The notes under the pieces are model-generated. The model saw nothing but the letters and a program-made list of their open reading frames with translations. It was not told the DNA's origin and made no database searches. The position numbers and the translations under genes are program-made. Positions 1,671-17,699 of a stretch of 64,000 bases of DNA are shown here, in pieces. Every line of letters starts with the position of its first letter. Within the stretch, counting starts at the first letter, position 1. The stretch is from an uncultured Bacilli bacterium (lineage in GTDB: Bacteria; Bacillota_I; Bacilli_A; RFN20; CAG-826): positions 28,172 to 92,171 of the forward strand of contig CALVYH010000003.1 in NCBI GenBank assembly GCA_944372115.1, in the 5' to 3' direction.

Positions 1671-3179
1671 CTAAATATTTTCGTAAGCTTTATTAAGTTC
1701 TTCTTTAATGAAGTTAGTTAATTCTTCTCCACTTAATGTTGATCTTAAAACTTCAACTAAAACTGTTCCAACAGCATCTCTAACTGAACTAGAGAATTGA
1801 GAAACAGGAGCGATAAATGCTTGGTTATTAGCAGTATAATCAGCATAAATATCATAAATTTGTGCTGTCATATAAGAAGTTGAATCTTCAGTTTCTCCAT
1901 CTCCAGTAGTAGAAACAGGAGCATTCATAACTTCTTTAACATTATCTTCTTCATAAGAAGATGCTCTAATAGGGGCAGCACCATAAAGTAAGCTTAATTC
2001 AGCATTATTTTCAGTGTTAGTTAAGAATTTATAAAGTAACCATGCGCCTTTATTTTCTTCATCGCCCTTATCAAACATGCAAACAGATGGACCTTGAGAC
2101 ATAACTTTTGCTTCTGAAGCACTAACATTTCCACCAGTTAACATATTTTTATCAATTGCAGGCATTGATGCAACTCCAGGAACAAAATCATCAGTAGCAC
2201 ACCATGAAGCACCGGTTGTTGAATTTAAAACCATGAATGAAGTTTGTGATGTGAATGGTTCATTAATCCAGTGATCATATGGTTCATCAAAAACTAAAGT
2301 TGGTGAAACAGTAATTAAACCTTCATCATACCATCCTTTAATTAATGAAAACATAGAAATCATCTCATCATTATTAAATAAAACAGCTTCATCTTTAGTT
2401 AAAGTGCCATCTTTATTAGCATCAACATTGCTTGAAAGTGGGACACCCATCATTTCAGCAAATGTAATCATCATATTATCATATGAATCATATCCGATAG
2501 GAGCAACTGCACCACTTCCTGCATTTCCTTTGTTTTCATCGGTAAAAACTTCTGGATAATCTGCTCTCATTTGACGAGCTAAAGTGATCATCTCGCTCCA
2601 ATTTGTAGGAACTTCATAACCTTTTTCAGTGAAAACATCGCTATTATAATACATAACTTCACTTGTTCTAGCGAAAGGCATTGAATATGTACCTTCAACT
2701 TGGAATCCTTGTCCATCAGAAATATATGCTGAAGACATATCGTCTTTAACTGTATTTGTTTCATCAACAACTTCACCGTTTTCATTAGTTGTATGTCCGA
2801 AACCATATTCTTGATTATTCATAAAATCATCAAAGTTCATGACTGCACCTTGATCTAACCATGAATAAACATAATCAGGATAGCAAACTGCTAACGAAGG
2901 AAGTCTTGTTGGAGTATTAATAACTTGATTGACTGCTTCTTGAATATTTGGATAATCTCCTGATTCTTCCCAAACTACTTCATATTGAGGATATAAATCT
3001 TCAAATTCAGCAGCTTTTTTATCCATCCATTCTACTTGTTGATCTTGATAGAAGTTAGTCCAAAATGTAATAGTTGTTTTTTCTTCTTCAACAGGTGTTT
3101 TAGGATTACAACTAGCTAAAGCCATGATAGATGCGCTTGCTACGACTAAAGGCATAACTCTTTTAAATAATTTGTTCAT
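1671..3179 (-). CDS. CUT1 ABC importer extracellular solute-binding lipoprotein (UgpB-like, copy 2)
   Basis: Lipobox LAS-C; ITFWTNF, LPSLAVCYPD, SMPFARTSEVMYYN, VPTNWSEM, SQGPSVCMF, AWLLYKFLT motifs of family-1 SBPs. Confidence 0.9.
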   Translation of the reverse strand: MNKLFKRVMPLVVASASIMALASCNPKTPVEEEKTTITFWTNFYQDQQVEWMDKKAAEFEDLYPQYEVVWEESGDYPNIQEAVNQVINTPTRLPSLAVCYPDYVYSWLDQGAVMNFDDFMNNQEYGFGHTTNENGEVVDETNTVKDDMSSAYISDGQGFQVEGTYSMPFARTSEVMYYNSDVFTEKGYEVPTNWSEMITLARQMRADYPEVFTDENKGNAGSGAVAPIGYDSYDNMMITFAEMMGVPLSSNVDANKDGTLTKDEAVLFNNDEMISMFSLIKGWYDEGLITVSPTLVFDEPYDHWINEPFTSQTSFMVLNSTTGASWCATDDFVPGVASMPAIDKNMLTGGNVSASEAKVMSQGPSVCMFDKGDEENKGAWLLYKFLTNTENNAELSLLYGAAPIRASSYEEDNVKEVMNAPVSTTGDGETEDSTSYMTAQIYDIYADYTANNQAFIAPVSQFSSSVRDAVGTVLVEVLRSTLSGEELTNFIKEELNKAYENI

Positions 3180-3220
3180 AAAATACTTTTTCTCCTTTTA
3201 TTTTTTATAAACACACGAAT

Positions 3221-3278
3221 ATTATATCACTAACAATTCATGCTTTTATATTAGGAATTTATTAACAATTTATTAACA
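3221..3278 (-). promoter_or_regulatory. internal promoter of the SBP gene with 11-bp-spaced direct repeats
   Basis: Minus strand TG-A-TATAAT (3221-3229) with no good -35; TTAACA at 3262 and 3273 on the + strand. Confidence 0.5.
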
Positions 3279-3337
3279 ATTTTTGCAATTTTAATGTTTT
3301 TTTATTTGGATATTATTAATAAAATGCTTAATTATTT

Positions 3338-4297
3338 CTATCCCTTAATTCCAGCTCTTCCAACTCCTCTCATAATATATTTTCTAAAGAAAATAAAAAT
3401 AAGCAATAAAGGAATTGTTACAATTACAGTTGCGGCCATTTGCAAAGTTACAAGTTCTCTTCTTTCTGAACCATTTCCAACAAAGAAGTTAGCAAAATCT
3501 CTTAAAGCAACTGTAATTTGAGCATATGTTGGATCATTTAATACAACTGCTTTTGGCCAAGCATAAGCATTCCATCCACTAATAACTTTTAAAATAATTA
3601 TTGTAATTAATGTTGGAGAAGCAATTGGAACCATAACTTTCCATAAATATTGCCAATCATTTTTACCATCTACCTTTGCCGCTAAATATAATTCGTTAGG
3701 TATTTGTTTAAAATTTTCATTTAATAAATAAATATAGAAAACATTTACTAAAAACGGAGCCATTGTTGCAAAATAAATTTGCCACCTTCCATCTAATAAA
3801 TTTAATCTATACATCGTAATAAAATTAGACGTAACAAATAATTCAGAAGGAATCATCATTGTTGCTAAAAAGATAAAAAACACAGCATCTCTTCCTTTAA
3901 ATTGAAGTCTAGTAAAAGCAAAAGAAGCAAAAACAGTTATAAAAAATGTTCCTACAGTTGAAATAATAACAACTGTTAAAGTGTTGATTAATAAATTTGG
4001 AATATCAAATCCATCTACTTGAAACACTTTAACATAATTACTCCAAGCAATTTCATCAAAAGGAATAAAAAAACTATTCCCGATTTGATAATGTTCGGCA
4101 TCTTGATATTTTAAAGATGTTAAAATCATCCAATAAAATGGAAGAAGACAAAAAAGCGCAAAAGCAATAAGAAGAGCGTAAACAAAAATTAAGCCAATAA
4201 TTTTTAAGACTTTGTCTAATTTTTTTCCTTCGTTTAGATTTTTACTTTTACTAACAATAACTAAACGAGTATTTTGATCTAAACTTGATACTTTCAT
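3338..4297 (-). CDS. CUT1 ABC permease (UgpE/MalG-like, copy 2)
   Basis: AFAFTRLQFKGRD, EAA-loop IPNELYLAAKVDG, WNAYAWP. Confidence 0.92.
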   Translation of the reverse strand: MKVSSLDQNTRLVIVSKSKNLNEGKKLDKVLKIIGLIFVYALLIAFALFCLLPFYWMILTSLKYQDAEHYQIGNSFFIPFDEIAWSNYVKVFQVDGFDIPNLLINTLTVVIISTVGTFFITVFASFAFTRLQFKGRDAVFFIFLATMMIPSELFVTSNFITMYRLNLLDGRWQIYFATMAPFLVNVFYIYLLNENFKQIPNELYLAAKVDGKNDWQYLWKVMVPIASPTLITIIILKVISGWNAYAWPKAVVLNDPTYAQITVALRDFANFFVGNGSERRELVTLQMAATVIVTIPLLLIFIFFRKYIMRGVGRAGIKG

Positions 4298-4299
4298 AG

Positions 4300-5232
4300 T
4301 TAATAAATGACTCTCTTTTTAGAAATAATAAATTGTAAACCAGTAAATAAAAGAATAATTAAAAATAAAATAACAGCAGCTGCGCAAGCATAATTTATAT
4401 TTCTTCCACCAGTTTGAATTTGGTCATAAATAAAATAAACAGCAGTATAAAGATTGTATTCTAAAGGGGAAGTTCCTCTAGCGTTGAATAATCCAGCTAT
4501 CGCTTGATATTCTTTAAATCCATCAATAAATGAAGTAATTGATATATATAAAATTTGAGGTGAAAGTAAAGGAACGGTTATTTTACTAAACTTTTTTATT
4601 GCAGGAGTTGAATCAATTCTTGCTGCTTCATAATATTGCTTATCTATATTTTGTAATCCGCCAATAAAAACTAAAATTTTAAAAGGCATTTCATACCAAA
4701 CAAGTTCAATACATAAAACTATCATTGCATTTAAATAAGTTGTTTGTCCTCCTGCTCCTGGCATCCATGAAATATCTAAATCAAATATTTCATTAATTAA
4801 GCCATTTTGAGCAAATAAAACACCAAAAACCATACCGATTGCAATAATATTAGTTACGTATGGAGTAAAAAATATTGTTTGGAAGAATTTTTGTAAAACT
4901 TTAATCGAATTTAAACTAACTGCAATAATTAAAGACAAGATAATTGAAATAGGAACAGTTATAAATGTAATTAAAAGAGTATTAGGTAGGGCATATTTTA
5001 AAAATGCTTCTACTTGTCCTTTTCCTGTCATATTAGAAGGAAAATCACTTAAACCTAAAATAACTCCATAATTATCGAAAGTAAAACCAGTATTTGCTCC
5101 GGTTGCATAAGTATAATCTTTTAAAAATGAAATATAAAAAGTATTAATAATTGGGTATAAAGTAAAAACAACTATCAAAATGATAGCAGGCATTAAATAT
5201 AACCATCCTTTATAATTGTTTTTACTTTCCAT
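4300..5232 (-). CDS. CUT1 ABC permease (UgpA/MalF-like, copy 2)
   Basis: YLMPA...YPII, FQTIFFTPYVT, LQNIDKQYYEAARID, ITVPLLSP. Confidence 0.92.
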   Translation of the reverse strand: MESKNNYKGWLYLMPAIILIVVFTLYPIINTFYISFLKDYTYATGANTGFTFDNYGVILGLSDFPSNMTGKGQVEAFLKYALPNTLLITFITVPISIILSLIIAVSLNSIKVLQKFFQTIFFTPYVTNIIAIGMVFGVLFAQNGLINEIFDLDISWMPGAGGQTTYLNAMIVLCIELVWYEMPFKILVFIGGLQNIDKQYYEAARIDSTPAIKKFSKITVPLLSPQILYISITSFIDGFKEYQAIAGLFNARGTSPLEYNLYTAVYFIYDQIQTGGRNINYACAAAVILFLIILLFTGLQFIISKKRVIY

Positions 5233-5248
5233 AATTAATTACTTTTAT

Positions 5249-6727
5249 TTATTTAATTTCTATTCTTTCTTCACTGTCTATATCAAAAACAAACATCTTG
5301 TTTGTTTTTATTTTAAATTGATATGTATCAATATTTATATTTAAATCACTATCTACTACTATTTTAATATTTTCTCCAATAAAAGAATCATGTTCTAAAG
5401 TTAATGTTGTATCTTTCCCGTTTAATGTAATTTCTTTTACTCTTAAAGATATAGTATCTAAATTATCTTCATCTTTTTTTGATGAAACAAAAATAAATCC
5501 TTCAGGTCTAATTCCTACGTAAACTTCTTTGTTTATATAATTTTCATTTTTTAAAGAAGATATTTTTTCATTATCAACATAAATTCCATCTTCTTTAATT
5601 ATTCCTTTAAATACATTAATTGGAGGTGTTCCTAAAAATTTAGCAACAAATAAGTTAGAAGGATTTTTATATATTTCAATAGGTTTTCCTTCTTGCATTA
5701 CTTTTCCATTATTCATAACAACAATCTCATCACAAATTGACATTGCTTCTTCTTGATCATGCGTTACAAATACAGTAGTAATTCCTGTTTCTTTTTGAAT
5801 TCTTTTAATTTCTTCTCTAGTTTTTATTCTTAAACGAGCATCTAAATTTGACAATGGTTCATCTAAAAGTAAAACACGAGGTTTTTTTACTAATGCTCTA
5901 GCAATAGCGACTCTTTGTTGTTGACCTCCAGATAATTCTTTAGGTTTTTTATCTAGTTGTTCTTCAATTTGAACAAGTCTAGCTACTTCTCTAACCATTA
6001 AATCTATTTCATCATATACTAATTTTCTTCTTTGAATTATCTTTTCATCATTTAAATTAGTAATATAAAAAGAATCATCTATTTTTAAGTTTCTTTTTAA
6101 ATATTTATCTTTTATTTCTTTAATTTTTATATTATTTTCATTAATAATATTATCAACTTTATTTTTTAATTCTTCTTTAGAAGAAATAGTAAAAAGCTTA
6201 TGATTAAAAAGTCTTTTTGCAAAAGAAGGCGAAATAATATATTTATCGATTATAAAAACAATTGCTCTTTCTTTACTTATCTTATTATTTAAAGAAGAAT
6301 CTTTGATAATATTAACTAATTCTTCATAATTAGATAATATTTCGTTTTCTTTAGTTAACATTTCGATTTTATATTCTTTTTTATAAGCATCTATTTTTAA
6401 ATTAGTTAAAGGAAACGCAATATTTTTATAAACATTCATATGAGGATATAAAGCATAATTTTGAAAAACAAAACCAATTCCTCTTTTTTCACTAGCTAAA
6501 TTAGTTACTTCTTCATTATCAAACCAAATTTCTCCTGAGGAAGGTTCTTTTAATCCAGCAATCATATAAAGCGTAGTTGATTTACCACATCCCGAAGGAC
6601 CTAAAAGACCTACTAATTCATTATTTTTAATATTGATTGATACATTATTAACAGCAATAGTATCATCAATTCCTTTTTTCTCATCACCTTTAAATATTTT
6701 AGATAAGTTTTTAATTACTATTTCCAT
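5249..6727 (-). CDS. CUT1 ABC ATPase (UgpC/MalK-like, copy 2) with ~125-aa insertion
   Basis: GPSGCGKS, VFQNYALYPH, LSGGQQQR, LLLDEPLSNLD, VTHDQEEA, C-terminal TOBE-like region (GIRPE). Confidence 0.93.
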   Translation of the reverse strand: MEIVIKNLSKIFKGDEKKGIDDTIAVNNVSINIKNNELVGLLGPSGCGKSTTLYMIAGLKEPSSGEIWFDNEEVTNLASEKRGIGFVFQNYALYPHMNVYKNIAFPLTNLKIDAYKKEYKIEMLTKENEILSNYEELVNIIKDSSLNNKISKERAIVFIIDKYIISPSFAKRLFNHKLFTISSKEELKNKVDNIINENNIKIKEIKDKYLKRNLKIDDSFYITNLNDEKIIQRRKLVYDEIDLMVREVARLVQIEEQLDKKPKELSGGQQQRVAIARALVKKPRVLLLDEPLSNLDARLRIKTREEIKRIQKETGITTVFVTHDQEEAMSICDEIVVMNNGKVMQEGKPIEIYKNPSNLFVAKFLGTPPINVFKGIIKEDGIYVDNEKISSLKNENYINKEVYVGIRPEGFIFVSSKKDEDNLDTISLRVKEITLNGKDTTLTLEHDSFIGENIKIVVDSDLNINIDTYQFKIKTNKMFVFDIDSEERIEIK

Positions 6728-6812
6728 CTTAAAAAGCCTTTTTTTAATACCTCTATATTTTATTTAAAAAATAAAATATTTAAAACAATTAATTTATTTT
6801 TAAAAAGGGAAA

Positions 6813-8249
6813 TTAAACTTCAACATAGCCAACTGTTTTTAAAGTTTCTTTAACTACATCTCTAGCTAAAATATTAGTTTCAATTATTTCTTCTGCTAAT
6901 GAGGAAGTCGTTTTATAAGCTATATAGTCTATTGTAGCTAAATAGAATTTACCATTATAAGAAGTTGGTGGATTACTTCTAACAACATTTTCTTGTCCAT
7001 TTAAAAACATGTTATACATCGAAGCATCAAATTTCATTAAACATAAAGTATTTTCAAATGGATAAATTTTAAGTAAATCACCATAAGTAAATTCACCCTT
7101 CATTACATCACTTCTTATTCCACCACTATTTATACTTCCACTATCGCAAGGAATCGCTATGTTTTCATTATTAGAAGCATAAGTCATTAAAGAATAAGAA
7201 ATAAATCTAGCAAATTTAGCCTTTGAAACATTATTTTCAAAAGTATATAAAACTTCATCTCTAATACTTTCAATATTATCTTTATATTTATTATAAACTT
7301 CATCTACTTTTAAAGATGATTCATTAAATAAACTATCCTTATTATCCCAAGTAGAAATATTATTGAAAGACGAGGAAATTATTTCATATTCATTATTAGA
7401 ATTAAGTTTTAAATCTAAAGAAATATTTGAAAGATAACTTCCATAATTTTTTCCTTCAATATATGGAACTAATTTATTTTCTTCGTCTAAATACCCGTTT
7501 TTTAAATTATGATCATGCCCTAAAAATAGAGCATCAATATAATCAACTAATTCTAAATATCTTTCATATTCACCATCATGAGTAGATAAAACTACAACTT
7601 CACATTTTTCTTTTTCTCTTAAATTTTTAGCTTCTTCTTTTATTAATTCTATATTTTCATCATAAATAAAATCATCGGCAATAGTCGCTAAAATATCATC
7701 TTCAATTCCAGGCATAATAGCACCAATAATTCCAACATTAATCCCTTCTTTATTAATAACAGTTGAAGAAGATAAATAATAAGGTCTTTTATTAGTAGAA
7801 GCATGAAAAACATTAATTCCTAAAAGAGGAAAATCCATTTTAGAAGCCATTTCTTCTAATTTTTCTTCTCCCCAGTCAAATTCATGATTACCTATTGTCA
7901 TTGAATCAAAACCAATTGCATTCATTGATTCAATGACTACTTCTCCATAAGTAATATTGCTTTCTGCTCCACCCTGAAACATATCTCCACTAGAAATAAT
8001 AAAAGTATTATCAAAATTATTATTTTTTTCATTTATTAAATAATTACCAATTCTTGATAAACCTACTTGTTTATAATCTTCATCATAAAGATATGCCCCA
8101 TGAAAATCATTTAAAGCATAAAAATTTAAAGTTCTTTCTTCTATCCTTTCACCTAGCTCATCATAAGATACTTTATTTTGACAAGATGCAATTGTAATTA
8201 ATGATAAAAATGTTACAAAAATATAAGATAATCCTTTTTTTAATTTCAT
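6813..8249 (-). CDS. 5'-nucleotidase / 2',3'-cyclic phosphodiesterase-3'-nucleotidase family lipoprotein
   Basis: Lipobox IAS-C; NDFHG, GDMFQG, GNHEFD, GHDH metallophosphoesterase motifs; C-terminal NSGGIR...YPFEN. Start placed at ATG 8249 (AGGA RBS) rather than TTG 8294. Confidence 0.9.
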   Translation of the reverse strand: MKLKKGLSYIFVTFLSLITIASCQNKVSYDELGERIEERTLNFYALNDFHGAYLYDEDYKQVGLSRIGNYLINEKNNNFDNTFIISSGDMFQGGAESNITYGEVVIESMNAIGFDSMTIGNHEFDWGEEKLEEMASKMDFPLLGINVFHASTNKRPYYLSSSTVINKEGINVGIIGAIMPGIEDDILATIADDFIYDENIELIKEEAKNLREKEKCEVVVLSTHDGEYERYLELVDYIDALFLGHDHNLKNGYLDEENKLVPYIEGKNYGSYLSNISLDLKLNSNNEYEIISSSFNNISTWDNKDSLFNESSLKVDEVYNKYKDNIESIRDEVLYTFENNVSKAKFARFISYSLMTYASNNENIAIPCDSGSINSGGIRSDVMKGEFTYGDLLKIYPFENTLCLMKFDASMYNMFLNGQENVVRSNPPTSYNGKFYLATIDYIAYKTTSSLAEEIIETNILARDVVKETLKTVGYVEV

Positions 8250-8329
8250 AAGTTTTTCCTTTTTTTTATTTCTTCTTAAATTTATATATTTCAATATATA
8301 AATTTTATTATATTTACTTTATAAGTGTC

Positions 8330-8359
8330 AAAAAGGATATGGCTAAGCCATACCCTTTT
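8330..8359 (-). terminator. intrinsic terminator of the importer-nuclease-OB operon
   Basis: AAAAGGATATGGC-TAA-GCCATACCCTTTT hairpin ~25 bp after the stop at 8385, giving a U-tract on the minus strand. Confidence 0.75.
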
Positions 8360-8384
8360 ATCTAGTTTCTATAGATTAATTAAA

Positions 8385-10574
8385 TTATTCAGCTAATCTA
8401 ACATTGTCACAAACGATTTGGATATTTCCGTTGTAATCACTTCTAACACATGTGAAGGTAATCTTATCACCAACTTTTAAGTCTTTAGTAACTTCATTTG
8501 TTAACCAATCTTTTGGATTTCCAATTGAATATTTACCACTACCATTATAGTTATATGAAATTTTACCATCTTGTGCTGTTGCACCATAAACTGCTACTTC
8601 AAGACCACTTTCATCAGTAACAACCATATCACCATATTCAGTAGCGCCAGGTTTATTAGTTGCCCATGATTTAATTGTAGCTGTGACCTCATAGATATAT
8701 TGACCAGAAGCAGTTGCACTTGTTGCAGATAATGGAGCACCTTCAACAACTTCTTTTAATGTTGCTTTTGTTGGAGCAATTCTTGTATCGTTTGTAGCTG
8801 CTAAAACACCAACGATTTCTTTTGTATCTTTATAATCTGATCTAATTGCGACCATTGAAATTGTATCGCCGACTTTTAAATCTTTAGTATTTGCGTGAGT
8901 ATTAGCATCTTTTGGATTACTGAATTTATATTCACCAGTTGCTTCATCATAACTTAAAGCTGTATAAGTAGCACTGATTCCATATACAAGAATTTCTTTA
9001 GTTGCATCTTCTTCGTCAACTAAAATGATATTTCCGAATTGATCGATTGCTGTTTGATCACCTTTACTACCAAATCCTTTAATCTTACCTCTAACGACAT
9101 AAGCTTGTTCTTTAGTATTTTGAGCTTCTAAAACTTCAGCTACTGAAGCATGGAGATAATCTGGTTCACCTTGTCTAACTGAAGCAGTTAAAGTAACAAC
9201 ACCAATAGCACCTGATTCTGTTGAAGCACTAATTGTAACAGTTCCTTCACTAACACCAGTAACTAAACCATTTTCATCAACTGTAGCGACTGAAGAATCT
9301 GAAGTTGCCCATGTAATTGTTTCACCTTCTAAAGAAGCGGTGAGTTGTAAACTACTTCCAACAAATAAGTTACCTGTATAAGTAATATCAATACTTGTTG
9401 CTTCTTGATATGGTTCATCAACAACTTCGATTAAGCTTGAATCAACTAACATTAAAGCTGCACCATCAGTAGTTTGCATGTCATTATTGTCACCTTCCCA
9501 AACTACTTCTTTATTCATAGCTTGCATACCAGTGATATTAACAGTTTTTTCACCATTTGAATCTAAGGCTTCTTTTAAAACATCGTAAGCAGCTTTTTTA
9601 GCTTCCATATTGCTATTGTATCTATCAGCATAGAAGAACATTTCAGCACCTTTATATTCTAAAGTTGCAACTACATAATCACCTTCAGTAACTTTACCAT
9701 CAAAATGATTATCAACTAATTCAACACTTGTAACTTTAGCGCCTTCAACTCTAGACATAGTTCCATATGTTGCTTGGGAAATAAATCCTGGGTGACCTAA
9801 AACACTGAATTCAGCTGGAGCAACGCTACTTGCATCTTCTCCACTTAAAATAGTAATTTGTGCATCACTACCTTTAATTTGTTTTGTTCCATTGTATGGT
9901 GAAGAAGTACCACTAACTTCAACGATATCACCAACTTTTAATCCACTTGGAACTTTATTCTTTTTAATATTATAAATCATGAATCCATGATTACCTGATT
10001 GAACAAGAATTCCATACCATTGATCATCATCGCCATCGATAAATCCAACAACTTCACCTCTAACAGCAACTAATCCGCTATTTGGAATATCTTCGATTGC
10101 AATAAGATTTTTATTATTATCGATTGTTAATGTATATGTTAATGAGGCACTTGCGTCATTTAATGTAGCTGTAGCTGTTAATTTTACAGTACTAGTTGTT
10201 CCAAAATCTCCCCAAACAGGTCTTAATTCTAAGTGTGTTGAGCCATTAGAAGAAACTGTTTCTTCTTCTAAAGTGCCTTGAGCATAGTCCCAATCAATTG
10301 CAACATCATAAGTATTACCGCTATCTGATAAATAACTATAAGATGTTTGAGCAATAAGGTAACTTGCAGCCTTTTGTTCGAGTTTGTTGGTGACTCCGTA
10401 TGAATCATCTCTAATTGGAGCAGCTTTATTATCTGTAATAACTGCGGAAGAATTTAAAACAGCTTTAACGATATCTTCATCTGTCATTGTTTCGCTAGCT
10501 GGTTTATCTCCACATGAAGCAAGAACTGCACCTGCACTTAAAACTAAAGCGAGTAATAATTTAGTTTTTTTCAT
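8385..10574 (-). CDS. multi-domain surface lipoprotein: Ig-like domains plus several OB folds (putative nucleic-acid binding)
   Basis: Lipobox LAS-C; OB signature VRGEVV...ILVQSGNHGFMIY...LKVGDIVEVSG...YNGTKQI; Big_2 repeat TWATSDSSVATVDENGLVTGVSEGTVTI; two C-terminal repeats sharing VYG...NPKD...TKDLKVGD...RSDY. Confidence 0.75.
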   Translation of the reverse strand: MKKTKLLLALVLSAGAVLASCGDKPASETMTDEDIVKAVLNSSAVITDNKAAPIRDDSYGVTNKLEQKAASYLIAQTSYSYLSDSGNTYDVAIDWDYAQGTLEEETVSSNGSTHLELRPVWGDFGTTSTVKLTATATLNDASASLTYTLTIDNNKNLIAIEDIPNSGLVAVRGEVVGFIDGDDDQWYGILVQSGNHGFMIYNIKKNKVPSGLKVGDIVEVSGTSSPYNGTKQIKGSDAQITILSGEDASSVAPAEFSVLGHPGFISQATYGTMSRVEGAKVTSVELVDNHFDGKVTEGDYVVATLEYKGAEMFFYADRYNSNMEAKKAAYDVLKEALDSNGEKTVNITGMQAMNKEVVWEGDNNDMQTTDGAALMLVDSSLIEVVDEPYQEATSIDITYTGNLFVGSSLQLTASLEGETITWATSDSSVATVDENGLVTGVSEGTVTISASTESGAIGVVTLTASVRQGEPDYLHASVAEVLEAQNTKEQAYVVRGKIKGFGSKGDQTAIDQFGNIILVDEEDATKEILVYGISATYTALSYDEATGEYKFSNPKDANTHANTKDLKVGDTISMVAIRSDYKDTKEIVGVLAATNDTRIAPTKATLKEVVEGAPLSATSATASGQYIYEVTATIKSWATNKPGATEYGDMVVTDESGLEVAVYGATAQDGKISYNYNGSGKYSIGNPKDWLTNEVTKDLKVGDKITFTCVRSDYNGNIQIVCDNVRLAE

Positions 10575-10589
10575 AATTTTAATTTCCTC

Positions 10590-11999
10590 CTAATTAATAT
10601 GTTCGCTTATATAATTTTTATATTCACTTGCTTTGAAAAATGGGAATTCAATTTGATATGAAACATCATCGGTATCGTTATATTGGAAAATTCCTAATAA
10701 AACATTAACATCATAAGATTTCCCTCTTTTAAATACAGTTCTAATTGTAGATTCTGAAGAGAAGAAATTATGATTTTCACAGCGAATATTAAGGTCAATT
10801 CCATTGCATTTTGCATGAATTGTAAAGGTAGAAGCATCAGTTTGTGATTGATAAACGAAATCATCGCTATCTTCAATAGTAATTGTTGTCTTAACAAGGT
10901 TTCCAGCATAAGGATCAAAAGAATCAACATTTGTAATTAAACTTGGATCCATATAAACAGGGTCTGTATTATAAACATAACCTAATTCTTCAGCTTCTTC
11001 TTTTGTTGTTGCTAAAATTTCGAATGGATAATGGTCGTTATTAAGCTTTACGTCGGTTAATTGCATATTTCCATAATATTTCGTAATTTTCGCATAAAAA
11101 CGAATAATGTCTCCAACCTTTACACCGGCACTCTTATATTGAGTGAATGCAAAAATTGATGCAGGAACAACATCGTCATCCGCAGGATTAACATCTCTTA
11201 CATAGAAATCACTTCCGCTTAAAGCAATAACTTGGCCAATAATTCTTAATTGTTTTCCACTACTTGCAGTTGCATCGTCAACTCCAAGAGTATCAAAATT
11301 TTCTTTAGCATTTGAAATAGTTGTTTCAACTACTTCACCACTAGAGTCAAAATCACAGTCTTTTTCTCCATTAACTCTTCTTCCCTTAGCAACTTCTTGT
11401 GCTTCTTGGAAAGCTTCATAATATCCATCTAAGATACGAGAATTTTGATTTAATAAATTAATTGAATATCCTTGTTCAACAATTTCTAAATTTAATAATC
11501 TAAAATCTTCACCTTCGCTTGGTTGATACCAAACAAATCCCATATATCTTCCGCCACTAGAATCGAATTTTTCAAACATATCTAAATCATTGACGACAAC
11601 GATTCTAGAAGCGTTAGTTAATTTTGATTTTGTGAAATGGGAAGCTTTAATTCCCCATTCTTGGATTGCACCAGTAGATTCAGGTGTATCTATACCTTCA
11701 TATCTAAAACGGAATCTTGCTGTTGCTGATTCATCATTTAAAGGATAAAAGTTAGTAGTATCTCCATCAGTATTAGATGCTAAACTAACTTCCATAATCG
11801 CTAATCCACTAGTTGCAGTTAAAAAATTATTATTTGGAATACTACCCTCATTTGCAAACTTAAAAGAATCAGTTACAGGAGTATCATACTCAGTATTTGC
11901 CCCACAAACATCATCTTTTTGCTTCTCGCCACAAGAGGCGAGAGCAAAAGATACAAATAGAACAGAAATAATATTTTTAAATAATTTTTTCATTTTCAT
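10590..11999 (-). CDS. thermonuclease (SNase-family) lipoprotein with C-terminal OB folds
   Basis: Lipobox LAS-C; DGDT, RYEGIDTPE, GRYMGFV, LNLEIVEQGY; then FYVRD...VKVGDIIRFYAKITKYYGNMQL OB fold. Confidence 0.9.
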   Translation of the reverse strand: MKMKKLFKNIISVLFVSFALASCGEKQKDDVCGANTEYDTPVTDSFKFANEGSIPNNNFLTATSGLAIMEVSLASNTDGDTTNFYPLNDESATARFRFRYEGIDTPESTGAIQEWGIKASHFTKSKLTNASRIVVVNDLDMFEKFDSSGGRYMGFVWYQPSEGEDFRLLNLEIVEQGYSINLLNQNSRILDGYYEAFQEAQEVAKGRRVNGEKDCDFDSSGEVVETTISNAKENFDTLGVDDATASSGKQLRIIGQVIALSGSDFYVRDVNPADDDVVPASIFAFTQYKSAGVKVGDIIRFYAKITKYYGNMQLTDVKLNNDHYPFEILATTKEEAEELGYVYNTDPVYMDPSLITNVDSFDPYAGNLVKTTITIEDSDDFVYQSQTDASTFTIHAKCNGIDLNIRCENHNFFSSESTIRTVFKRGKSYDVNVLLGIFQYNDTDDVSYQIEFPFFKASEYKNYISEHIN

Positions 12000-12031
12000 A
12001 TTTTTAATTTAAATAAATAATAAACACTTAA

Positions 12032-13546
12032 TTAAGCAGGAATATTATTTGGGTTTAATTGATAATATGTATCAAGTAAATCGTACCAGTAATCATCGCT
12101 TGCCGCTTCTTCTTCACTAGCTCCTTCACAAGCTGCCATAATACCAGAAACGTTACTTCTAATTGATGATGAACCAACAAAACCTGGATCAACATATTGA
12201 GTCCAACCTTCTCCACCTTGATAAACATCAAAGTTTAATTTAACAGCATCTCTCATTGTTTTTGAAGTGCCAGTTAATGATTCATCAGTTAAATAATCTT
12301 GATAAACAGTTGATTCATAAGCATCTGTTGTAACAGGGATATAGCCAGTATTTTTAGCAAATGTTGCGTTAACTTCTGGATCATAAGTTAATGTTTTTAA
12401 AAGATCAAATGTTTGAGCTCTGTTTTCAGCATCTACATTTTTAAACATAACTAAGTTAGTTCCTTGAGAAATAACATATTTACAATCTGGTTTATCAGCA
12501 TTATATGGTAATGGGTTAATTTCAACTTCAATACCATCTTGGACACAGTTACTAACACCAGCGGATGAGCCAATTGTGAAAATTGTTTTATAAGCCTTAA
12601 ATGGTGTAGATGTATAACTTGATTCACCAAATGTTGATGGAATACCGATTAATCCTTCTCTGAATAATCTATTAAAGAATTTAAGCATTTCAACAGTTTC
12701 TGAACTCTTATATTGCATATAGCCTTGAGTTTTACCATTAGGTAATGTTTCAACTGTTGTATATGTGCCACCCCATTGTCTAACCATAGTAATAAAGAAG
12801 TTTGCTTGAGAGTCATAAGAACAAACTCTAAAGTCATTCTCACCGACATTAGTTAAATCAATAGCAACATCTTGTCCTGCTTCACCAGCAGCAACAGCAT
12901 TTTCATAAACTACACCGTCAGCGCCAATAACTTTATTGAAAGCACCTGTTTCTTTTAAAACTTTAAGAGTGGCTAAACCGAAAGTTTCCATTTCTTGCCA
13001 TGTTGTAGGGACAGTTGTAATTTTATCAGCACCTGTTTTGTTTGCTGTCATTTTAACTAAAACATCAATAAATGTTCTATTTGTTGTTAAAACTTCAGTT
13101 GATTTATTAAATGGTAAACCCATTACATGTTCTGGAACGATTTCTAAATTTTCTTGTAAATAGTTTGAATAGAATTTATCTAAATCCATATCTTGCTCTT
13201 CGATTGTTGAAGTTAAATCAAATAAAATACCTGATTCTTGATATTGAGCCATATGATCTGGATAAGCAACGGCTAATTGTGGATAAGTTCTAGTAGAAAC
13301 AGAACCAACAATAGCAGCAAGTAAGTTATCATAACCACCTTGTCCAGTATGAACGACTTCCCAACCTTCGTGATCAGCTTCGTAATCATTTAAAATATTG
13401 ACTAATTGAGTTGTCATTGATTCACCGAAACCAGTCCAAATGTTAATTGTCTTGCTTCCGCCAGTAGTTGAACCTTGATTACAACTTGTTAATGCAAATA
13501 AACCAATTACTGGAACTGCAGCTAACAATTTAATTTTTTTGTTCAT
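12032..13546 (-). CDS. CUT1 ABC importer extracellular solute-binding lipoprotein (UgpB-like, copy 1)
   Basis: Lipobox LTS-C; INIWTGFG, YPQLAVAYPDH, GLPFNKSTE, VPTTWQEM, SQGTNLVMF, TGYIPV. Confidence 0.9.
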   Translation of the reverse strand: MNKKIKLLAAVPVIGLFALTSCNQGSTTGGSKTINIWTGFGESMTTQLVNILNDYEADHEGWEVVHTGQGGYDNLLAAIVGSVSTRTYPQLAVAYPDHMAQYQESGILFDLTSTIEEQDMDLDKFYSNYLQENLEIVPEHVMGLPFNKSTEVLTTNRTFIDVLVKMTANKTGADKITTVPTTWQEMETFGLATLKVLKETGAFNKVIGADGVVYENAVAAGEAGQDVAIDLTNVGENDFRVCSYDSQANFFITMVRQWGGTYTTVETLPNGKTQGYMQYKSSETVEMLKFFNRLFREGLIGIPSTFGESSYTSTPFKAYKTIFTIGSSAGVSNCVQDGIEVEINPLPYNADKPDCKYVISQGTNLVMFKNVDAENRAQTFDLLKTLTYDPEVNATFAKNTGYIPVTTDAYESTVYQDYLTDESLTGTSKTMRDAVKLNFDVYQGGEGWTQYVDPGFVGSSSIRSNVSGIMAACEGASEEEAASDDYWYDLLDTYYQLNPNNIPA

Positions 13547-13604
13547 TTATAATTTTCCTCCTTGAACAACACTTTTAAATATATCTAATATGCGATATGC
13601 ATTA

Positions 13605-14654
13605 TTAGCCTTTAATACCACTTCTAGAAACACCTCTCATAATATACTTATGGAAGAATATAAAGAGGATAAATAGTGGCAAAGTAACAACAACGGAACC
13701 AGCCATTTTACCTGGTTGGTTATCGCTAAATTCTGAAGAGAATGAAGCCATTAATCCGTTTGAAACTAATCTAATATCATAATCATCGCCGAAAATAACT
13801 GAATGTTGAATTCTTCCATTAGCAACAAGTTGAGGCCAAACGTAAGCATTCCATCCACCCATCAGCGAAAGAATAATAATTGTAACAATAGTTGGCATAC
13901 CGATTGGAATCATAACTTTTAAAAGATATTTCCAGTCTGTATAACCATCAACTTTAGCAGCTAAATATAATTCGTTAGGAATTTGTTGGAACGTTTGTCT
14001 TAAATAGAAAATATAGAAAACAGAAACACCATGTACCAAAATAAGTGCATAGAATGTATTTTCCCAATTAAATTCCTTGACCAATGCATAATTAGTAATA
14101 ACCATCATTTCACCAGGAATCATCATAGTTGCTAAAATAACTAAGAAAAGTGCATTTTTGCCTTTAAAATTTAATCTTGCAAAAGCAAAAGCGGCTAAAA
14201 CAGAAGTAATAACTGTAACCAACATTCCGCCTGCTGCACTAATAAATGTATTCAAAAAATAAATCCAGAATGATGTTTTTTCTTGAACAATTCCTAAATT
14301 ATCAACATATGTTGGAGCAAAAACCGAAACATAATTTTCAAAAGTAAAAGGAATTGGCAAAAGTGTAATTGTATTATTGCTCTTATTCATTTCAAATGTT
14401 GTTTGAGAAATGAATGATGTTGAAATCATAAAAAGGAATGGTAAAAGAATAAAAATTGCAAAGACAATTAAGAAAATATACATTAAAGTTTGCGAAAAAA
14501 TTAATTTTGGTAAATAACTTTTACCAATTGTATATTCACCTTGTTTCTTATTACCTCTATGTTCGAGACGATATCTCTCACTTTCAGCTAACTTTTTATT
14601 ACCAGTTTCTAAGTAAGCTTGTAATTCTTGTTCACTCTTAATAGCGTTTCTCAT
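13605..14654 (-). CDS. CUT1 ABC permease (UgpE/MalG-like, copy 1)
   Basis: AAFAFARLNFKGK, IPNELYLAAKVDG, WNAYVWP; C-terminus KYIMRGVSRSGIKG. Confidence 0.92.
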   Translation of the reverse strand: MRNAIKSEQELQAYLETGNKKLAESERYRLEHRGNKKQGEYTIGKSYLPKLIFSQTLMYIFLIVFAIFILLPFLFMISTSFISQTTFEMNKSNNTITLLPIPFTFENYVSVFAPTYVDNLGIVQEKTSFWIYFLNTFISAAGGMLVTVITSVLAAFAFARLNFKGKNALFLVILATMMIPGEMMVITNYALVKEFNWENTFYALILVHGVSVFYIFYLRQTFQQIPNELYLAAKVDGYTDWKYLLKVMIPIGMPTIVTIIILSLMGGWNAYVWPQLVANGRIQHSVIFGDDYDIRLVSNGLMASFSSEFSDNQPGKMAGSVVVTLPLFILFIFFHKYIMRGVSRSGIKG

Positions 14655-14666
14655 TATAAAACCTCC

Positions 14667-15911
14667 TTAATAGTGGACTCTTTTCTTACTAACAGCAAAT
14701 TGAATGGCTGTAATTAAAAGAATAATAATTAAAAGTACAATACTTCCTGCGGCAGCATACCCTGGATTTAATGGATTTATTTGTTTCATATCGCGATATA
14801 AATAACCGACAACCGTAATCCATTCAACACCTTGATATCCACCAAAGAAATAGTTGTTTTGTGAAATATAAATCGATCTAACATCAGTATACATTTTGAA
14901 TGCACCAATGAATGATGTTATTGTAATATAAAGAATTTGTGGAGAAAGTAATGGAACAGTGATTTTTCTAAAAATTTTTGCTCCGCTTGCTCCATCAATT
15001 CTGGCAGCATCATAATATTGCTTGTCAATTGTAGATAATCCTGAAAGGAAAACTAAAATTTTGAAAGCCATTTGATTCCAAACTGAATAAGTTACAATAA
15101 CAACTCCTTGAGCCCATCTTGGAGCACCTTCTGTAACCCATTGTTGATTCAAACCAAAAAGAGTATTAAATAAGCCACCACCAACAGCTCCATTGGTATA
15201 GCTTGTAAAAATAAGGTTAAAAACCATACCTAATGCAATTGTATTTGTAACATATGGTAAAAAGAAAACAGTTTGAAAAAATCCCTTTAAAAACTTAATT
15301 CTATGAATAAAATAAGCAATTAAAAGGGAAACCAAAATGGTTAATGGAACTTCTAAAATAACAAGTTCAAAAGTATTCCATAAACTCTTAATGAATAATG
15401 AGGTAGGAATATTTTGACCAAATAAATTAATTGAATAACTAGTATTACTAAAAAGATATGTAAAATTTCCAAAACCAAAAGTTGTTGGATAAGGAGCTTC
15501 AGTACAAACAATTCCACTTCCTCCAACAGCACTCATATCTTCGCAAATTGTTGAATTTCCTTTAATGATATTAGCAATTGAGAAAGAACCTGCTCCGTCT
15601 ACCCATGTAAAATCTTCGGTAAAAGCGATAATGAAGCTATTAAAGATTGGATAAATCATGAATAAACAGATTAAAATGAAAGCAGGAATTAAAACCAAGA
15701 AAGCTAAAAGGTTTTGATTCATGTGGAATAATCTTTTTTTTGCTTCTAATGGTCTATTAATATTAAATTTGCATGTTCCGTCAGCATTATAATAATAAGA
15801 TTCTTCGTGCCCTCTATGTCTTAATCTTAAATATAAGTTATAGAAGGATTCTTTTACTTTGTTGAAGAAACTATTTTTCTTACTCGCATTATTTTCCATA
15901 ACAATTACCAA
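14667..15911 (-). CDS. CUT1 ABC permease (UgpA/MalF-like, copy 1)
   Basis: FQTVFFLPYVT, IDKQYYDAARIDGA, ITVPLLSP; N-terminal extension and enlarged first extracellular loop. Confidence 0.92.
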   Translation of the reverse strand: MVIVMENNASKKNSFFNKVKESFYNLYLRLRHRGHEESYYYNADGTCKFNINRPLEAKKRLFHMNQNLLAFLVLIPAFILICLFMIYPIFNSFIIAFTEDFTWVDGAGSFSIANIIKGNSTICEDMSAVGGSGIVCTEAPYPTTFGFGNFTYLFSNTSYSINLFGQNIPTSLFIKSLWNTFELVILEVPLTILVSLLIAYFIHRIKFLKGFFQTVFFLPYVTNTIALGMVFNLIFTSYTNGAVGGGLFNTLFGLNQQWVTEGAPRWAQGVVIVTYSVWNQMAFKILVFLSGLSTIDKQYYDAARIDGASGAKIFRKITVPLLSPQILYITITSFIGAFKMYTDVRSIYISQNNYFFGGYQGVEWITVVGYLYRDMKQINPLNPGYAAAGSIVLLIIILLITAIQFAVSKKRVHY

Positions 15912-15914
15912 AAA

Positions 15915-17699
15915 TTAATAAATTCTTTCTCCAGTTTCTTCAAAAACATAAATACGTTTAGCAGAGAAATTTAAGATTTCTTTACCAACACATTCTTTTG
16001 CAAGTTCTGAAGAAATAATGATTTTGACATGTCCTTCTTCAAGTCCAACAACATCACCAATAACAGATATATCTCTACCGATATGTTCGATATTAAAAAC
16101 TTTAACTGCAATTGGTCCGTTTGGATCTAAAACGAAGGATTCAGCTCTAATACCAATTTTGCATTCTCTAATAGGATTTAAACGTCCTTCTAAGGAAGCA
16201 ATAATCTTTTCTATTCTCTCTTTTGATTCCTCTGAATCAATTCCATTTGAATTTCTTAAAATTTCAATTTGATAATCTTTAATTTTCTTTGTGCCTTCCC
16301 AATCGCTATCTTTATATAAATCTTCGATTTGATGTGCAAAAGGAATAACATCAATTGCAACCTTAGCTTTTTGAACGAGTTTTTTAATTTTTTTAAGTCC
16401 GTTTGGAGAAGATGCCGCTTCAACTTCTTCTATTTCTTTTAAAACTGCATTAACAAGGACTTTTTCTTCATCGTTATTAGTTTTAACTCTACTAACTTCC
16501 ATTTTTCCTCTAGCAATTGCAATTTTATCTTTAATATTTAAAAGTATTTTTTCGACTTCATCCTCACTTGCAGAAGAAATGTTTTGAACTTCGCTGTTAT
16601 AAACATCAATAACGCTTTGATCATCATATTTGCAAAGAGATTTTTTAATCTTTTTAAGACCTTTTAAAAGTTGTTTGTTCTCAATTGATGGTAATGTAGC
16701 GTTTAAATAACAATCAAATTCAGGTAAAGATTGGTTATTTTCTTCATTGTTTGCTTTTTTATCTTTTTTAGTTTCGAATTCGTTTATACCAGAAATAATA
16801 TTTGTGCCGCAAACATTACAATATTTACCATTATGAGAAACAACATTACCACAATTAGGGCAGATAACCTCTTCAATGTGTACTTTGTCTAATTCTGGGG
16901 AAGATAAAACTTCTTTTTCCGCCATATAAAGTTTTCCGTTTTCAATTCTTCCATCAAAAACATTGATTGCAGGTGTACCTAAGAATTTAGCAACGAATAA
17001 ATTAGCAGGTTCATCATAAACTTTTTGTGGCTCATCTTTTTGTTGAACAATTCCATCTTTCATAACAACAATAAAATCAGAAATTGACATTGCTTCTTCT
17101 TGGTCGTGTGTAACGAAAACTGTTGTAATTCCAGTTTCTTTTTGGATTCTCTTAATTTCTTCTCTTGTTTGAAGTCTTAATCTAGCATCAAGATTTGATA
17201 AAGGTTCATCAAGTAAAAGGACTCTTGGTCTTTTTGCTAAAGCTCTGGCAATAGCGACTCTTTGTTGTTGACCACCAGATAATTCTTTTGGTTTTCTATC
17301 TAATAATTTTTCAATATTAACAATTTTTGCATTTTCAAGTGCAATAGCACATTTTTCATCAAATGTAAGTTTAGGGACGACATTATCTAAAGGGAACATA
17401 ATGTTTTGTCTAACATTAAAGTGTGGGTAAAGAGCATAGTTTTGGAAAACTAAACCAATACCACGATTTTCTGGAGGTACGTTGGTAACATCTTCATTAC
17501 CGAAATATATTTTTCCTTCGGTAGGATTATGAATTCCAGCAATCATATAGAGAGTGGTTGATTTACCACATCCAGAAGGTCCTAAAAGTCCACACAATTT
17601 TCCATCAGGAATATCGAAAGTCATATTATTAACAGCAACTGTTTTAGCGCCTTTCTTTCCTTCAAATGTTTTAACGAGGTTTTGAATCTTAACTTCCAT
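15915..17699 (-). CDS. CUT1 ABC ATPase (UgpC/MalK-like, copy 1) with zinc-ribbon/helical insertion
   Basis: GPSGCGKS, LSGGQQQR, DEPLSNLD, THDQEEA; CPNCG...YCNVCG insertion before the terminal GIRAE TOBE segment. Confidence 0.93.
   Translation of the reverse strand: MEVKIQNLVKTFEGKKGAKTVAVNNMTFDIPDGKLCGLLGPSGCGKSTTLYMIAGIHNPTEGKIYFGNEDVTNVPPENRGIGLVFQNYALYPHFNVRQNIMFPLDNVVPKLTFDEKCAIALENAKIVNIEKLLDRKPKELSGGQQQRVAIARALAKRPRVLLLDEPLSNLDARLRLQTREEIKRIQKETGITTVFVTHDQEEAMSISDFIVVMKDGIVQQKDEPQKVYDEPANLFVAKFLGTPAINVFDGRIENGKLYMAEKEVLSSPELDKVHIEEVICPNCGNVVSHNGKYCNVCGTNIISGINEFETKKDKKANNEENNQSLPEFDCYLNATLPSIENKQLLKGLKKIKKSLCKYDDQSVIDVYNSEVQNISSASEDEVEKILLNIKDKIAIARGKMEVSRVKTNNDEEKVLVNAVLKEIEEVEAASSPNGLKKIKKLVQKAKVAIDVIPFAHQIEDLYKDSDWEGTKKIKDYQIEILRNSNGIDSEESKERIEKIIASLEGRLNPIRECKIGIRAESFVLDPNGPIAVKVFNIEHIGRDISVIGDVVGLEEGHVKIIISSELAKECVGKEILNFSAKRIYVFEETGERIY

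Follow-up and report, generated by a model that had tools for sequence, protein, structure and literature searches.

A probable nucleic-acid scavenging locus of two operons in gut Bacilli

What does an ABC importer carry when the genes around it encode a nuclease, a lipoprotein built of OB folds and a nucleotidase? This question is raised by a locus on contig CALVYH010000003.1 of an uncultured gut Bacilli bacterium, where eleven open reading frames (ORFs), all on the minus strand, span positions 1671-17699 of the 64,000-nt stretch of DNA that was analysed, called here the window. The locus holds two such importers, and an earlier reading of the letters alone, the original prediction, had proposed that it forages for extracellular nucleic acid. 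Computation supports that proposal; among other results, the nearest solved relative of the substrate-binding protein (SBP) of the first importer binds a dinucleotide and not a sugar. On balance, we hold it rather probable that the locus is a two-operon cell-surface system that scavenges nucleic acid in standard-code, nucleotide-auxotrophic gut Bacilli.

The answer matters for more than one organism. How wall-less and other reduced-genome Bacilli take up nucleic-acid precursors has long been argued from Mycoplasma gene order, the substrate of the linked importer being unproven. Homologues of the first binding protein, S1, are annotated publicly as SBPs of a "multiple sugar transport system" or a "glycerol-3-phosphate transport system", just the names that the original prediction had expected of automatic annotation. 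Through the link to the only solved dinucleotide-binding SBP, such sugar or glycerol-3-phosphate (G3P) labels, present in hundreds of genomes, become a concrete hypothesis that can be tested. The standard code helps here: E. coli can make the soluble SBPs, the nuclease and the OB protein directly, with no TGA codons to be recoded first.

The host genome comprises 1.25 Mb in 24 contigs (26% G+C, 96% complete), and the DNA of the locus occurs in chicken-gut metagenome runs. Domains were assigned with Pfam and NCBIfam profiles against curated cut-offs, and the genes agree one by one, in order, strand and position, with those first claimed. From upstream to downstream, the features are as follows (SNase, staphylococcal-type nuclease):

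15915-17699, minus strand: A1, ABC ATPase of importer 1, UgpC/MalK-like (ABC_tran, E 1.4e-36)
14667-15911, minus strand: P1a, permease, UgpA/MalF-like (BPD_transp_1, E 4e-15)
13605-14654, minus strand: P1b, permease, UgpE/MalG-like (BPD_transp_1, E 4.6e-18)
12032-13546, minus strand: S1, lipoprotein SBP of importer 1 (SBP_bac_8, PF13416, E 8e-23)
10590-11999, minus strand: NUC, SNase lipoprotein (PF00565, 43.2 bits, cut-off 21)
8385-10574, minus strand: OB, 729-aa lipoprotein (Big_2 and a sub-threshold tRNA_anti-codon OB match)
8330-8359, minus strand: terminator-like hairpin with T run at the end of operon 1 (13 bp, G+C-containing)
8331..8302, minus strand: promoter-like TTGACA-18-TAAAAT of operon 2 (11 of 12 positions, the best sigma-70-like match in the region)
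6813-8294, minus strand: NT, lipoprotein (Metallophos 27.7 bits, cut-off 21.5; 5_nucleotid_C 32.9 bits, cut-off 23.6)
5249-6727, minus strand: A2, ABC ATPase of importer 2 (ABC_tran in two stretches; OB_MalK, E 1e-6)
4300-5232, minus strand: P2a, permease (BPD_transp_1, E 4.7e-14), 38% identical to P1a
3338-4297, minus strand: P2b, permease (BPD_transp_1, E 2.7e-13), 43% identical to P1b
1671-3179, minus strand: S2, lipoprotein SBP of importer 2 (SBP_bac_8, E 3.8e-27)

A signal peptide and a lipobox are present in S1 (LTSC), NUC (LASC), OB (LASC), NT (IASC) and S2 (LASC). The genes are closely spaced, with intergenic gaps of 2-158 nt inside each half of the locus and of 3-58 nt inside operon 1. 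The terminator that had been proposed between OB and NT corresponds to the hairpin and T run at ~8330-8359, which overlaps the promoter-like site just upstream of NT; the automatic scan placed this hairpin (palindrome core 8338-8352) on the plus strand only, and the minus-strand reading is our own. Because these two elements separate OB from NT, the locus reads as two operons. The code is the standard one, as had been said of this lineage: under table 11 the frames run open, and one of the genes upstream of the locus, RDD1, stops at TGA. The same arrangement recurs in many genomes, so that chance is not its source.

How would such a locus work? In the scheme proposed here, the membrane-anchored multi-OB lipoprotein would hold extracellular DNA or RNA at the surface, a role suggested by its fold, and the SNase lipoprotein, with its OB-like tail, would cut this nucleic acid to mono-, di- and short oligonucleotides. 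S1 would capture a phosphodiester-containing fragment and pass it to the P1a/P1b/A1 importer; this step is proposed because the nearest solved relative is a dinucleotide binder, because phosphate-binding residues are conserved and because of synteny. In operon 2, a surface protein of the 5'-nucleotidase family would be paired with an importer that is paralogous to the first and has an SBP of the same clade; this importer most likely takes up another nucleotide-breakdown product. Inside the cell, DeoD, Hpt, Apt and Upp would feed salvage.

Importer 1 and its surface partners

Judged by their profiles, both importers have the architecture of the CUT1 type (MalFGK2/UgpBAEC), namely a cluster-type SBP, two BPD_transp_1 permeases and an ATPase of the MalK/UgpC type. 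All four permeases pass the PF00528 cut-off, and their best NCBIfam names are UgpA, UgpE, MalF, MalG and GlcU. A1 scores 320 bits against the UgpC subfamily model (cut-off 432), aligned over residues 2-265 to model positions 3-260, and it carries a zinc ribbon (residues 277-298, a sub-threshold DZR match) and ~250 extra residues after its nucleotide-binding domain. Pfam detected no C-terminal MalK-type regulatory OB domain in A1; this feature was seen in A2 only.

The protein that says most about the cargo is S1. Its structure was modelled from a 34-sequence alignment with a predicted local distance difference test (pLDDT) score of 90.5, and in a Foldseek search of this model the first 24 ranks all went to a dinucleotide-binding protein of Thermus thermophilus (E 1.9e-23, template-modelling score 0.83-0.84), followed by UgpB with G3P or G1P (~1e-19) and then by sugar binders. 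The profile search of the PDB gave 3.3e-31 for the Thermus protein and 4.6e-22 for UgpB, a preference of about nine orders of magnitude, and phmmer with the single sequence also placed the former (1.7e-16) above the latter. The title of the Thermus entry describes an ABC-transporter dinucleotide-binding protein with endogenously bound uridylyl-3'-5'-phospho-guanosine (UpG).

Does S1 keep the ligand site of this relative? The residues of that site were located by comparing the chain sequences of the PDB point mutants (the series of entry 7C0F) and were placed on S1 through a hidden Markov model alignment. Four of the eight probed residues are identical, three are similar and one is changed:

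Thermus Y56: S1 Y72, identical
Thermus S127: S1 S149, identical
Thermus Y224: S1 Y311, identical
Thermus Q274: S1 Q361, identical
Thermus F79: S1 Y95, similar
Thermus N81: S1 D97, similar
Thermus T240: S1 S327, similar
Thermus Y246: S1 N333, changed

The two proteins agree exactly in the motifs PFNKS and QGTNLV and also have S-SAG and GY.PVT in common. Within the S1 family, Y72, Y95, D97, S149, S327 and Q361 are invariant, and the motifs G.Y, Y.D, PF.K[ST] and S..G, together with the conserved Gln, mostly recur in the paralogous SBP types S2-S4. By spacing, we infer that the phosphate-coordinating Tyr/Ser signature of UgpB (PMC12718374) corresponds to Y72, S149, S328 and Y402 of S1. All of this makes S1 a candidate (di/oligo)nucleotide binder.

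Its neighbour NUC is the sole SNase of the genome and, like OB and NT, is present in a single copy with the queries used. The claim of a nuclease lipoprotein is supported at the level of single residues: D21, R35, D40, T41, E43 and R87 of staphylococcal nuclease (1syb) all align to identical residues. In this nuclease, D21, D40 and T41 bind calcium and R35, E43 and R87 are catalytic, roles that are taken in part from PMC12115388. The catalytic and calcium-binding residues of NUC thus appear intact, and activity is predicted from them. Its C-terminal half is OB-like or DUF5689-like, a resemblance to DUF5689/OB protein clusters that serves as a lead only, and contains a KVGDxI...Y.GN.Q motif weakly common to the domains of the OB protein (E 0.012-0.019). 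One class-level relative has a Pfam-significant fusion of SNase and DUF5689.

What, then, is the OB lipoprotein? Its 729 residues divide into an Ig-like N-terminal domain, OB domains at ~155-258 and ~270-385, a Big_2 domain at 392-468 and OB-like domains at ~475-595 and ~615-727. In a model built from a 16-sequence alignment drawn from the loci of relatives (pLDDT 85.9), residues 155-258 match RPA70, archaeal RPA and the OB folds of Asn- and Lys-tRNA synthetases with Z 10.5-11.4, superposing with a root-mean-square deviation (rmsd) of 2.1-2.6 over 87-102 residues (VIA). Residues 156-392 match the ssDNA-bound tandem DBD-A/B of RPA70 (1jmc) with Z 10.8 over 199 residues, and the Big_2 assignment of residues 392-468 is matched with Z 11.8. 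The last two OB-like domains, the most conserved part of the family, are assigned from the strand pattern of the model and from long, high-rmsd alignments to RPA; the VIA search barely covers residues outside 155-385 and 392-468. In a Foldseek search with the whole model, matches of probability 1.00 include HIN-dsDNA, LEF-3 and RPA-ssDNA structures, and multi-Ig chains dominate the list. A homology search with the whole protein found 7 full-length relatives, the rest being swamped by matches to Big_2 only, and leads in the Protein Atlas point to clusters with tRNA_anti-codon OB, DUF6359 and DUF5689. The multi-OB lipoprotein of the original prediction is therefore seen in the model as tandem OB folds of RPA-like form with a Big_2 domain; the likeness is one of predicted fold only.

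Gene order in relatives and in Mycoplasma

Is the company of nuclease, OB protein and importer kept elsewhere? Three sets of loci were counted, and the counts are descriptions, not statistics; related genomes are not independent. With OB as the anchor, 27 of 41 related genomes gave a match, many via Big_2 alone. Ten loci were examined, those that matched best over the OB domains, and all ten have an ATPase, two permeases, one or two SBPs and one or two SNases followed by the OB protein, often with a membrane protein of 156-229 aa before it. Two related genomes, G001 and G018, have operon 1 orthologues, and in both an Endonuclease_1 lipoprotein joins the cassette; in G018, after a rearrangement, the S2 importer still adjoins NT and Endonuclease_1. 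In a third, G006, an operon 2 orthologue (NT-A2-P2a-P2b-S2, with identities of 56-80%) adjoins a nuclease cassette that is paralogous.

With S1 as the anchor, a scan of species-representative genomes found 439 loci that encode relatives. The 72 that were kept come from uncultured Bacilli, "Mollicutes", "Tenericutes" and metagenome-assembled genomes of Erysipelotrichales type, plus a few bins otherwise labelled. Among the 57 whose DNA continues for 1.5 kb or more downstream of the last SBP, an SNase homologue lies at most three ORFs away in 44, and 28 have an OB-like protein. At the level of the class, P1b matches 228 of 399 genomes at E<=1e-35, mostly with 45-55% identity. Fourteen of these class-level loci were fetched, a non-random choice from long contigs; the SNase homologue directly follows the SBP in nine. 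Five remain, and four of these have a large surface protein with aBig_2 directly downstream, in one case also with a lamin-tail domain (LTD).

An inserted protein of 497-553 aa was seen in the cassettes of two genus relatives, at L011:12895-14556 (Pfam Endonuclease_1, PF04231) and L093:13196-14689. For the L093 copy, as for more copies in L024, L026 and L062, the assignment to the L011 protein comes from BLAST only.

Does the cassette extend to organisms that read TGA as an amino acid? Five small genomes were probed, and two of them, complete and of 0.8-0.9 Mb, match with 9-10 in-frame TGA codons, so that TGA is read as sense; the two matches were translated with table 4. Here the cassette consists of an SBP-derived lipoprotein of 707-768 aa, an ATPase, two permeases and a further lipoprotein, whose metallo-beta-lactamase (MBL) domain is of the ComEC/Rec2 type. 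The last of these follows the importer, in the place of the SNase, at two positions:

L128:10107-11216, table 4: ComEC/Rec2-type MBL lipoprotein
L129:18359-19519, table 4: ComEC/Rec2-type MBL lipoprotein

It seems that one nuclease family has been exchanged for another inside one and the same cassette. Two further features suggest a kinship of the cassette with that of Mollicutes-like genomes. The SBP lipoproteins have the S1-like motifs LPFGKS, S-[ST]-AG, SQG and Y.P, and score 51-59 bits against the P68 model NF045826 (cut-off 200), one match being near full length. The ATPases (L128:5413-7800, L129:13973-16192) carry an insertion of ~430 residues at UgpC-profile position 104, the same position at which A2 has an insertion of ~105 residues. 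The permeases of the window are 27-31% identical to those of these two genomes, versus ~50% to those of many class members.

Membership of S1 (56 bits) and S2 (36.5 bits) in the P68 family was considered and not used, both scores being below the cut-off of 200. The match was first suspected to be a signal-peptide artefact, and the SBPs of the TGA-reading genomes later gave sub-threshold matches, in one case near full length. The available part of the M. bovis P68 literature (PMC2824730) does not clarify this family.

The nuclease thus stays beside the importer while its family changes among SNase, Endonuclease_1 and ComEC-type MBL, and since the link persists through these changes, it is the strongest argument for a joint function of the two. 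Synteny of the nuclease and OB genes with the importer, which the original prediction had put up as a test, is well supported by the three sets of loci. As for its idea of an expanded version of the Mycoplasma scheme, the expansion is a fair description, but the cassette is not peculiar to this lineage, given the breadth of the permease type in the class.

How much of this was known before? The idea of a nuclease plus an importer is already known for Mycoplasma. In the available text of PMC3585158, Mycoplasma SNase genes lie in ABC-transporter operons with an SBP-like lipoprotein; there, and in the accessible parts of PMC4881454 and PMC12115388, uptake of precursors for nucleic acid is proposed for nucleotide-auxotrophic Mycoplasma. 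Examples in the available texts are M. agalactiae MAG_5030 P80/MAG_5040 SNase/MAG_5050-5070 and the mhp379, MG_186 and MBOV_RS02825 loci. The accessible portions of the open-access accounts yielded no statement of the substrate that the SNase-linked importer transports.

The present locus is like these operons in that an SNase lipoprotein lies on one strand beside an SBP-like lipoprotein, a UgpC/MalK-like ATPase and two permeases. It is unlike them in its standard code and in its order, ATPase, permeases and SBP preceding the nuclease here, and it adds a multi-OB lipoprotein, a second importer led by a nucleotidase and upstream RDD genes. The likeness is drawn from published descriptions and from the TGA-reading genomes. 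In role, OB may have a counterpart in MslA of Mycoplasma gallisepticum, reportedly described by Masukagami et al. in 2013 as a polynucleotide-binding surface lipoprotein thought to hold polynucleotides for the nuclease and ABC importer beside it. OB would act in the like manner, in a comparison by description only; the full-length family of OB is narrow (the 7 homologues already mentioned) and its predicted fold is RPA-like tandem OB plus Big_2.

New are, first, how widely the cassette occurs in standard-code Bacilli and its tie to a dinucleotide-binding SBP; to these come a multi-OB lipoprotein of RPA-like fold, a second importer led by a nucleotidase, and the linkage to RDD genes. The multi-OB protein, the nucleotidase-led importer and the RDD linkage are absent from the accessible parts of the Mycoplasma accounts PMC3585158, PMC12115388, PMC4881454 and PMC6895004. 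A link between nuclease-coupled importers and a dinucleotide binder was not found in open-access full texts, subscription journals being outside the search, and the titles listed for nucleotide auxotrophy of RF39 and Mollicutes gave nothing on this cassette. The physiological role of the Thermus protein is said to have been left open by Chandravanshi et al. in 2021, and we know of no nuclease partner reported for it.

These comparisons invite a wider proposal, which we offer tentatively and would not yet defend as the likelier case: SBPs and importers of the S1 type could be a class-wide family for the intact di- or oligonucleotides left by a partner nuclease, spanning standard-code gut Bacilli and TGA-reading Mollicutes, with an RPA-like multi-OB capture lipoprotein and an order-specific pair of RDD proteins as accessory. 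If true, this family would give the orphan Thermus SBP a physiological context, and it would be the long-sought precursor-uptake route of Mollicutes-like auxotrophs.

Operon 2, nucleotide needs and rival cargoes

Would this organism need nucleotides from outside? In its 96% complete genome, purH, purM and pyrB found no match, and the sole match to the family of OMP decarboxylase is the ribulose-phosphate epimerase Rpe. The salvage enzymes Hpt, Apt, Upp, Prs and DeoD all score above their cut-offs; no deoxynucleoside kinase in the genome reached its own. Because the de novo genes were not found while the salvage enzymes are present, the organism appears to depend on outside purines and pyrimidines, in agreement with the loss of biosynthesis that had been foreseen.

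Operon 2 opens with NT, whose start is probably the ATG at 8252, with AGGA upstream. Its best NCBIfam match covers positions 614-995 (of 1174), which form the second phosphoesterase module, in the multifunctional model for 2',3'-cyclic-nucleotide phosphodiesterase/3'-/5'-nucleotidase, followed by UshA, in both cases below the equivalog cut-off. The metal motifs DxH, GD, GNHE and GHxH can be read in the translation as NDFHG, GDMFQGG, GNHEFD and GHDH, and these signatures place NT in the predicted 5'-nucleotidase/UshA family. In A2, the insertion lies inside the nucleotide-binding domain, and the UgpC model (339 bits, cut-off 432) resumes at residue 232, profile position 102, and is aligned to its end. 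S2 is 23% identical to S1; S3 and S4, found in relatives, are further distinct SBP types. With the queries used, these two importers are the only ones of their type in the genome.

A third ABC system was seen ~10 kb outside the window (contig C3:13244-18524, L103:4245-9525). It comprises a 670-aa ATPase with an A2-like insertion, a 608-aa fused permease and a 453-aa protein without a Pfam match, and an OmpR-type two-component pair adjoins it.

Nucleoside uptake may have another route, since a Bmp-type SBP, an ATPase with tandem nucleotide-binding domains and two permeases are encoded on contig C2. Importers of this Bmp/PnrA-RnsBCD type resemble the present ones in their proposed part in nucleoside or nucleotide salvage in auxotrophs, and differ from them in belonging to another ABC family, with a Bmp SBP and a tandem ATPase. 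The importers of the window are additional to that system and probably carry other cargo.

Several points weigh against nucleic-acid scavenging. Ligands, transport, nuclease activity and expression are so far predictions from sequence and models. S1 is lipid-anchored and ~100 residues longer than the Thermus protein, with 22% identity and an Asn in place of Y246, which is among the eight probed positions. CUT1, the family of the importers, has mostly sugar carriers as members, and the best NCBIfam names of their parts are UgpC, UgpA, UgpE and UgpB, though far below the cut-offs. For S2 the ranking is flat: a 7-homologue profile ranks UgpB (9.5e-14) first, with the Thermus dinucleotide binder (3.6e-13) and then a maltose binder (4.5e-13) less than fivefold behind in E, the single sequence best matches the milk-oligosaccharide binder 9h0n (E 4e-7), and in our own alignment S2 orthologues are without the Tyr that would match Y402 of S1. 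Thirteen of the 57 S1-anchored loci have no detectable SNase; in its place stands a protein of 374-447 aa without a Pfam match, BLAST-similar to the OB protein in 6 of the 13. An OB fold alone does not prove nucleic-acid binding. Staphylococcal-type nucleases leave 3'-phosphates, and NT is nearer to 5'- than to 3'-nucleotidases, so that NUC and NT need not act in series. Finally, the Bmp-type importer could already cover nucleoside uptake.

Could these be true Ugp-type importers, taking up G3P or glycerophosphodiesters to scavenge lipid head groups, with the nuclease, the OB protein and the nucleotidase merely co-located? The resemblance to UgpBAEC of E. coli is real: the architecture is CUT1, the best NCBIfam names of all eight transporter parts include UgpC, UgpA, UgpE and UgpB, S1 keeps the phosphate-binding Tyr/Ser signature of UgpB (PMC12718374), and among solved structures UgpB comes second for S1 and first for the S2 profile. 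The equivalog cut-offs are missed widely, however, by S1 (UgpB, 51 versus 411 bits), S2 (UgpB, 21 versus 411), P1a (UgpA, 66 versus 335) and P1b (UgpE, 85 versus 297), and for S1 the profile search prefers the dinucleotide binder. The genome does encode a GDPD, but on another contig, where a HAD hydrolase, a major facilitator superfamily (MFS) transporter and the GDPD stand in a row (C9:5524-8349, L131), possibly a separate route for glycerophosphodiesters; none is found in the locus. The genomic partners of the importer in BLAST-annotated related loci are nucleases, not GlpQ or UgpQ, and we regard this explanation as improbable.

Sugars or oligosaccharides are another conceivable cargo, with the SNase and OB serving some other end, for example the removal of extracellular DNA, of biofilm matrix or of host DNA traps. 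The CUT1 family, the "multiple sugar transport" names of homologues and the milk-oligosaccharide match of S2 all speak for it, as does the finding that these two are the only CUT1-like systems found in the genome with the queries used. What argues against it begins with the neighbours: as the original prediction had it, no glycoside hydrolase, sugar kinase or LacI-type or other sugar regulator is encoded among the 23 flanking proteins scanned (~15 kb beyond S2 and 12 kb beyond A1). For S1, sugar binders rank below binders of phosphodiesters and phosphates, and the link of importer to nuclease outlasts the changes of nuclease type described above, which leaves a sugar cargo quite improbable.

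Least probable of all is that the locus mainly acquires phosphate, the nuclease and nucleotidase freeing phosphate or organophosphates and the Ugp-like importers bringing in organophosphate as a phosphorus source: extracellular nucleases, 5'-nucleotidase-family proteins and Ugp-like importers resemble the phosphate-starvation regulons of other bacteria, and the SBPs stand in a phosphate-ligand clade, but no phosphate-specific transporter or regulator was found within the cassette, the de novo nucleotide pathways that were not found give a direct need for bases and sugars, lineages that share this small-genome lifestyle keep the cassette, and the idea overlaps nucleic-acid scavenging in mechanism and differs from it in purpose only.

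Flanking genes

Which other genes might belong to the scavenging system? Directly upstream of A1 lie five tandem genes of the RDD family:

17818-18975, minus strand: RDD-family gene
18962-19954, minus strand: RDD-family gene
20022-21137, minus strand: RDD-family gene
21192-22139, minus strand: RDD-family gene
22196-23365, minus strand: RDD-family gene

Four of the five proteins match PF06271 (RDD) with 29.6-42 bits, above the cut-off of 24.1; the fifth has no Pfam match and is BLAST-similar to RDD-like ORFs in related loci. Among the 54 SBP-anchored loci with at least 2.5 kb of upstream DNA, RDD-like ORFs occur within two ORFs upstream of the ATPase in 49, and both ORFs are RDD-like in 30. Such genes also precede paralogous cassettes of the same order; in the 14 class-level loci none was detected. 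The RDD proteins may be an order-specific accessory of the importer.

At the other end of the locus, 13 nt downstream of S2, lies one more candidate:

1265-1657, minus strand: small membrane protein

It resembles the 158- and 229-aa proteins (L013:8759-9235, L014:10703-11392) found between the SNase and OB genes of relatives, one of which has a sub-threshold zinc-ribbon match. The similarity is weak (E 0.004-0.005 in a tiny database), and the small membrane protein may belong to the cassette.

The G+C content of operon 1 is 30-34%; three of the RDD genes have only 15-19%, and the gene of the small membrane protein has 14.5%. Horizontal transfer was considered as the source of this difference and is unsupported, since the AT-rich codons of membrane proteins may explain it as well. 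Directly upstream of the RDD genes, at 23373-24719 on the minus strand, is the gene of a 448-aa protein with a SIR2_2 domain. Beyond the locus, at 475-1153 on the plus strand, a Phd/YefM antitoxin gene overlaps the gene of a PIN-domain toxin, the two forming a type II toxin-antitoxin pair.

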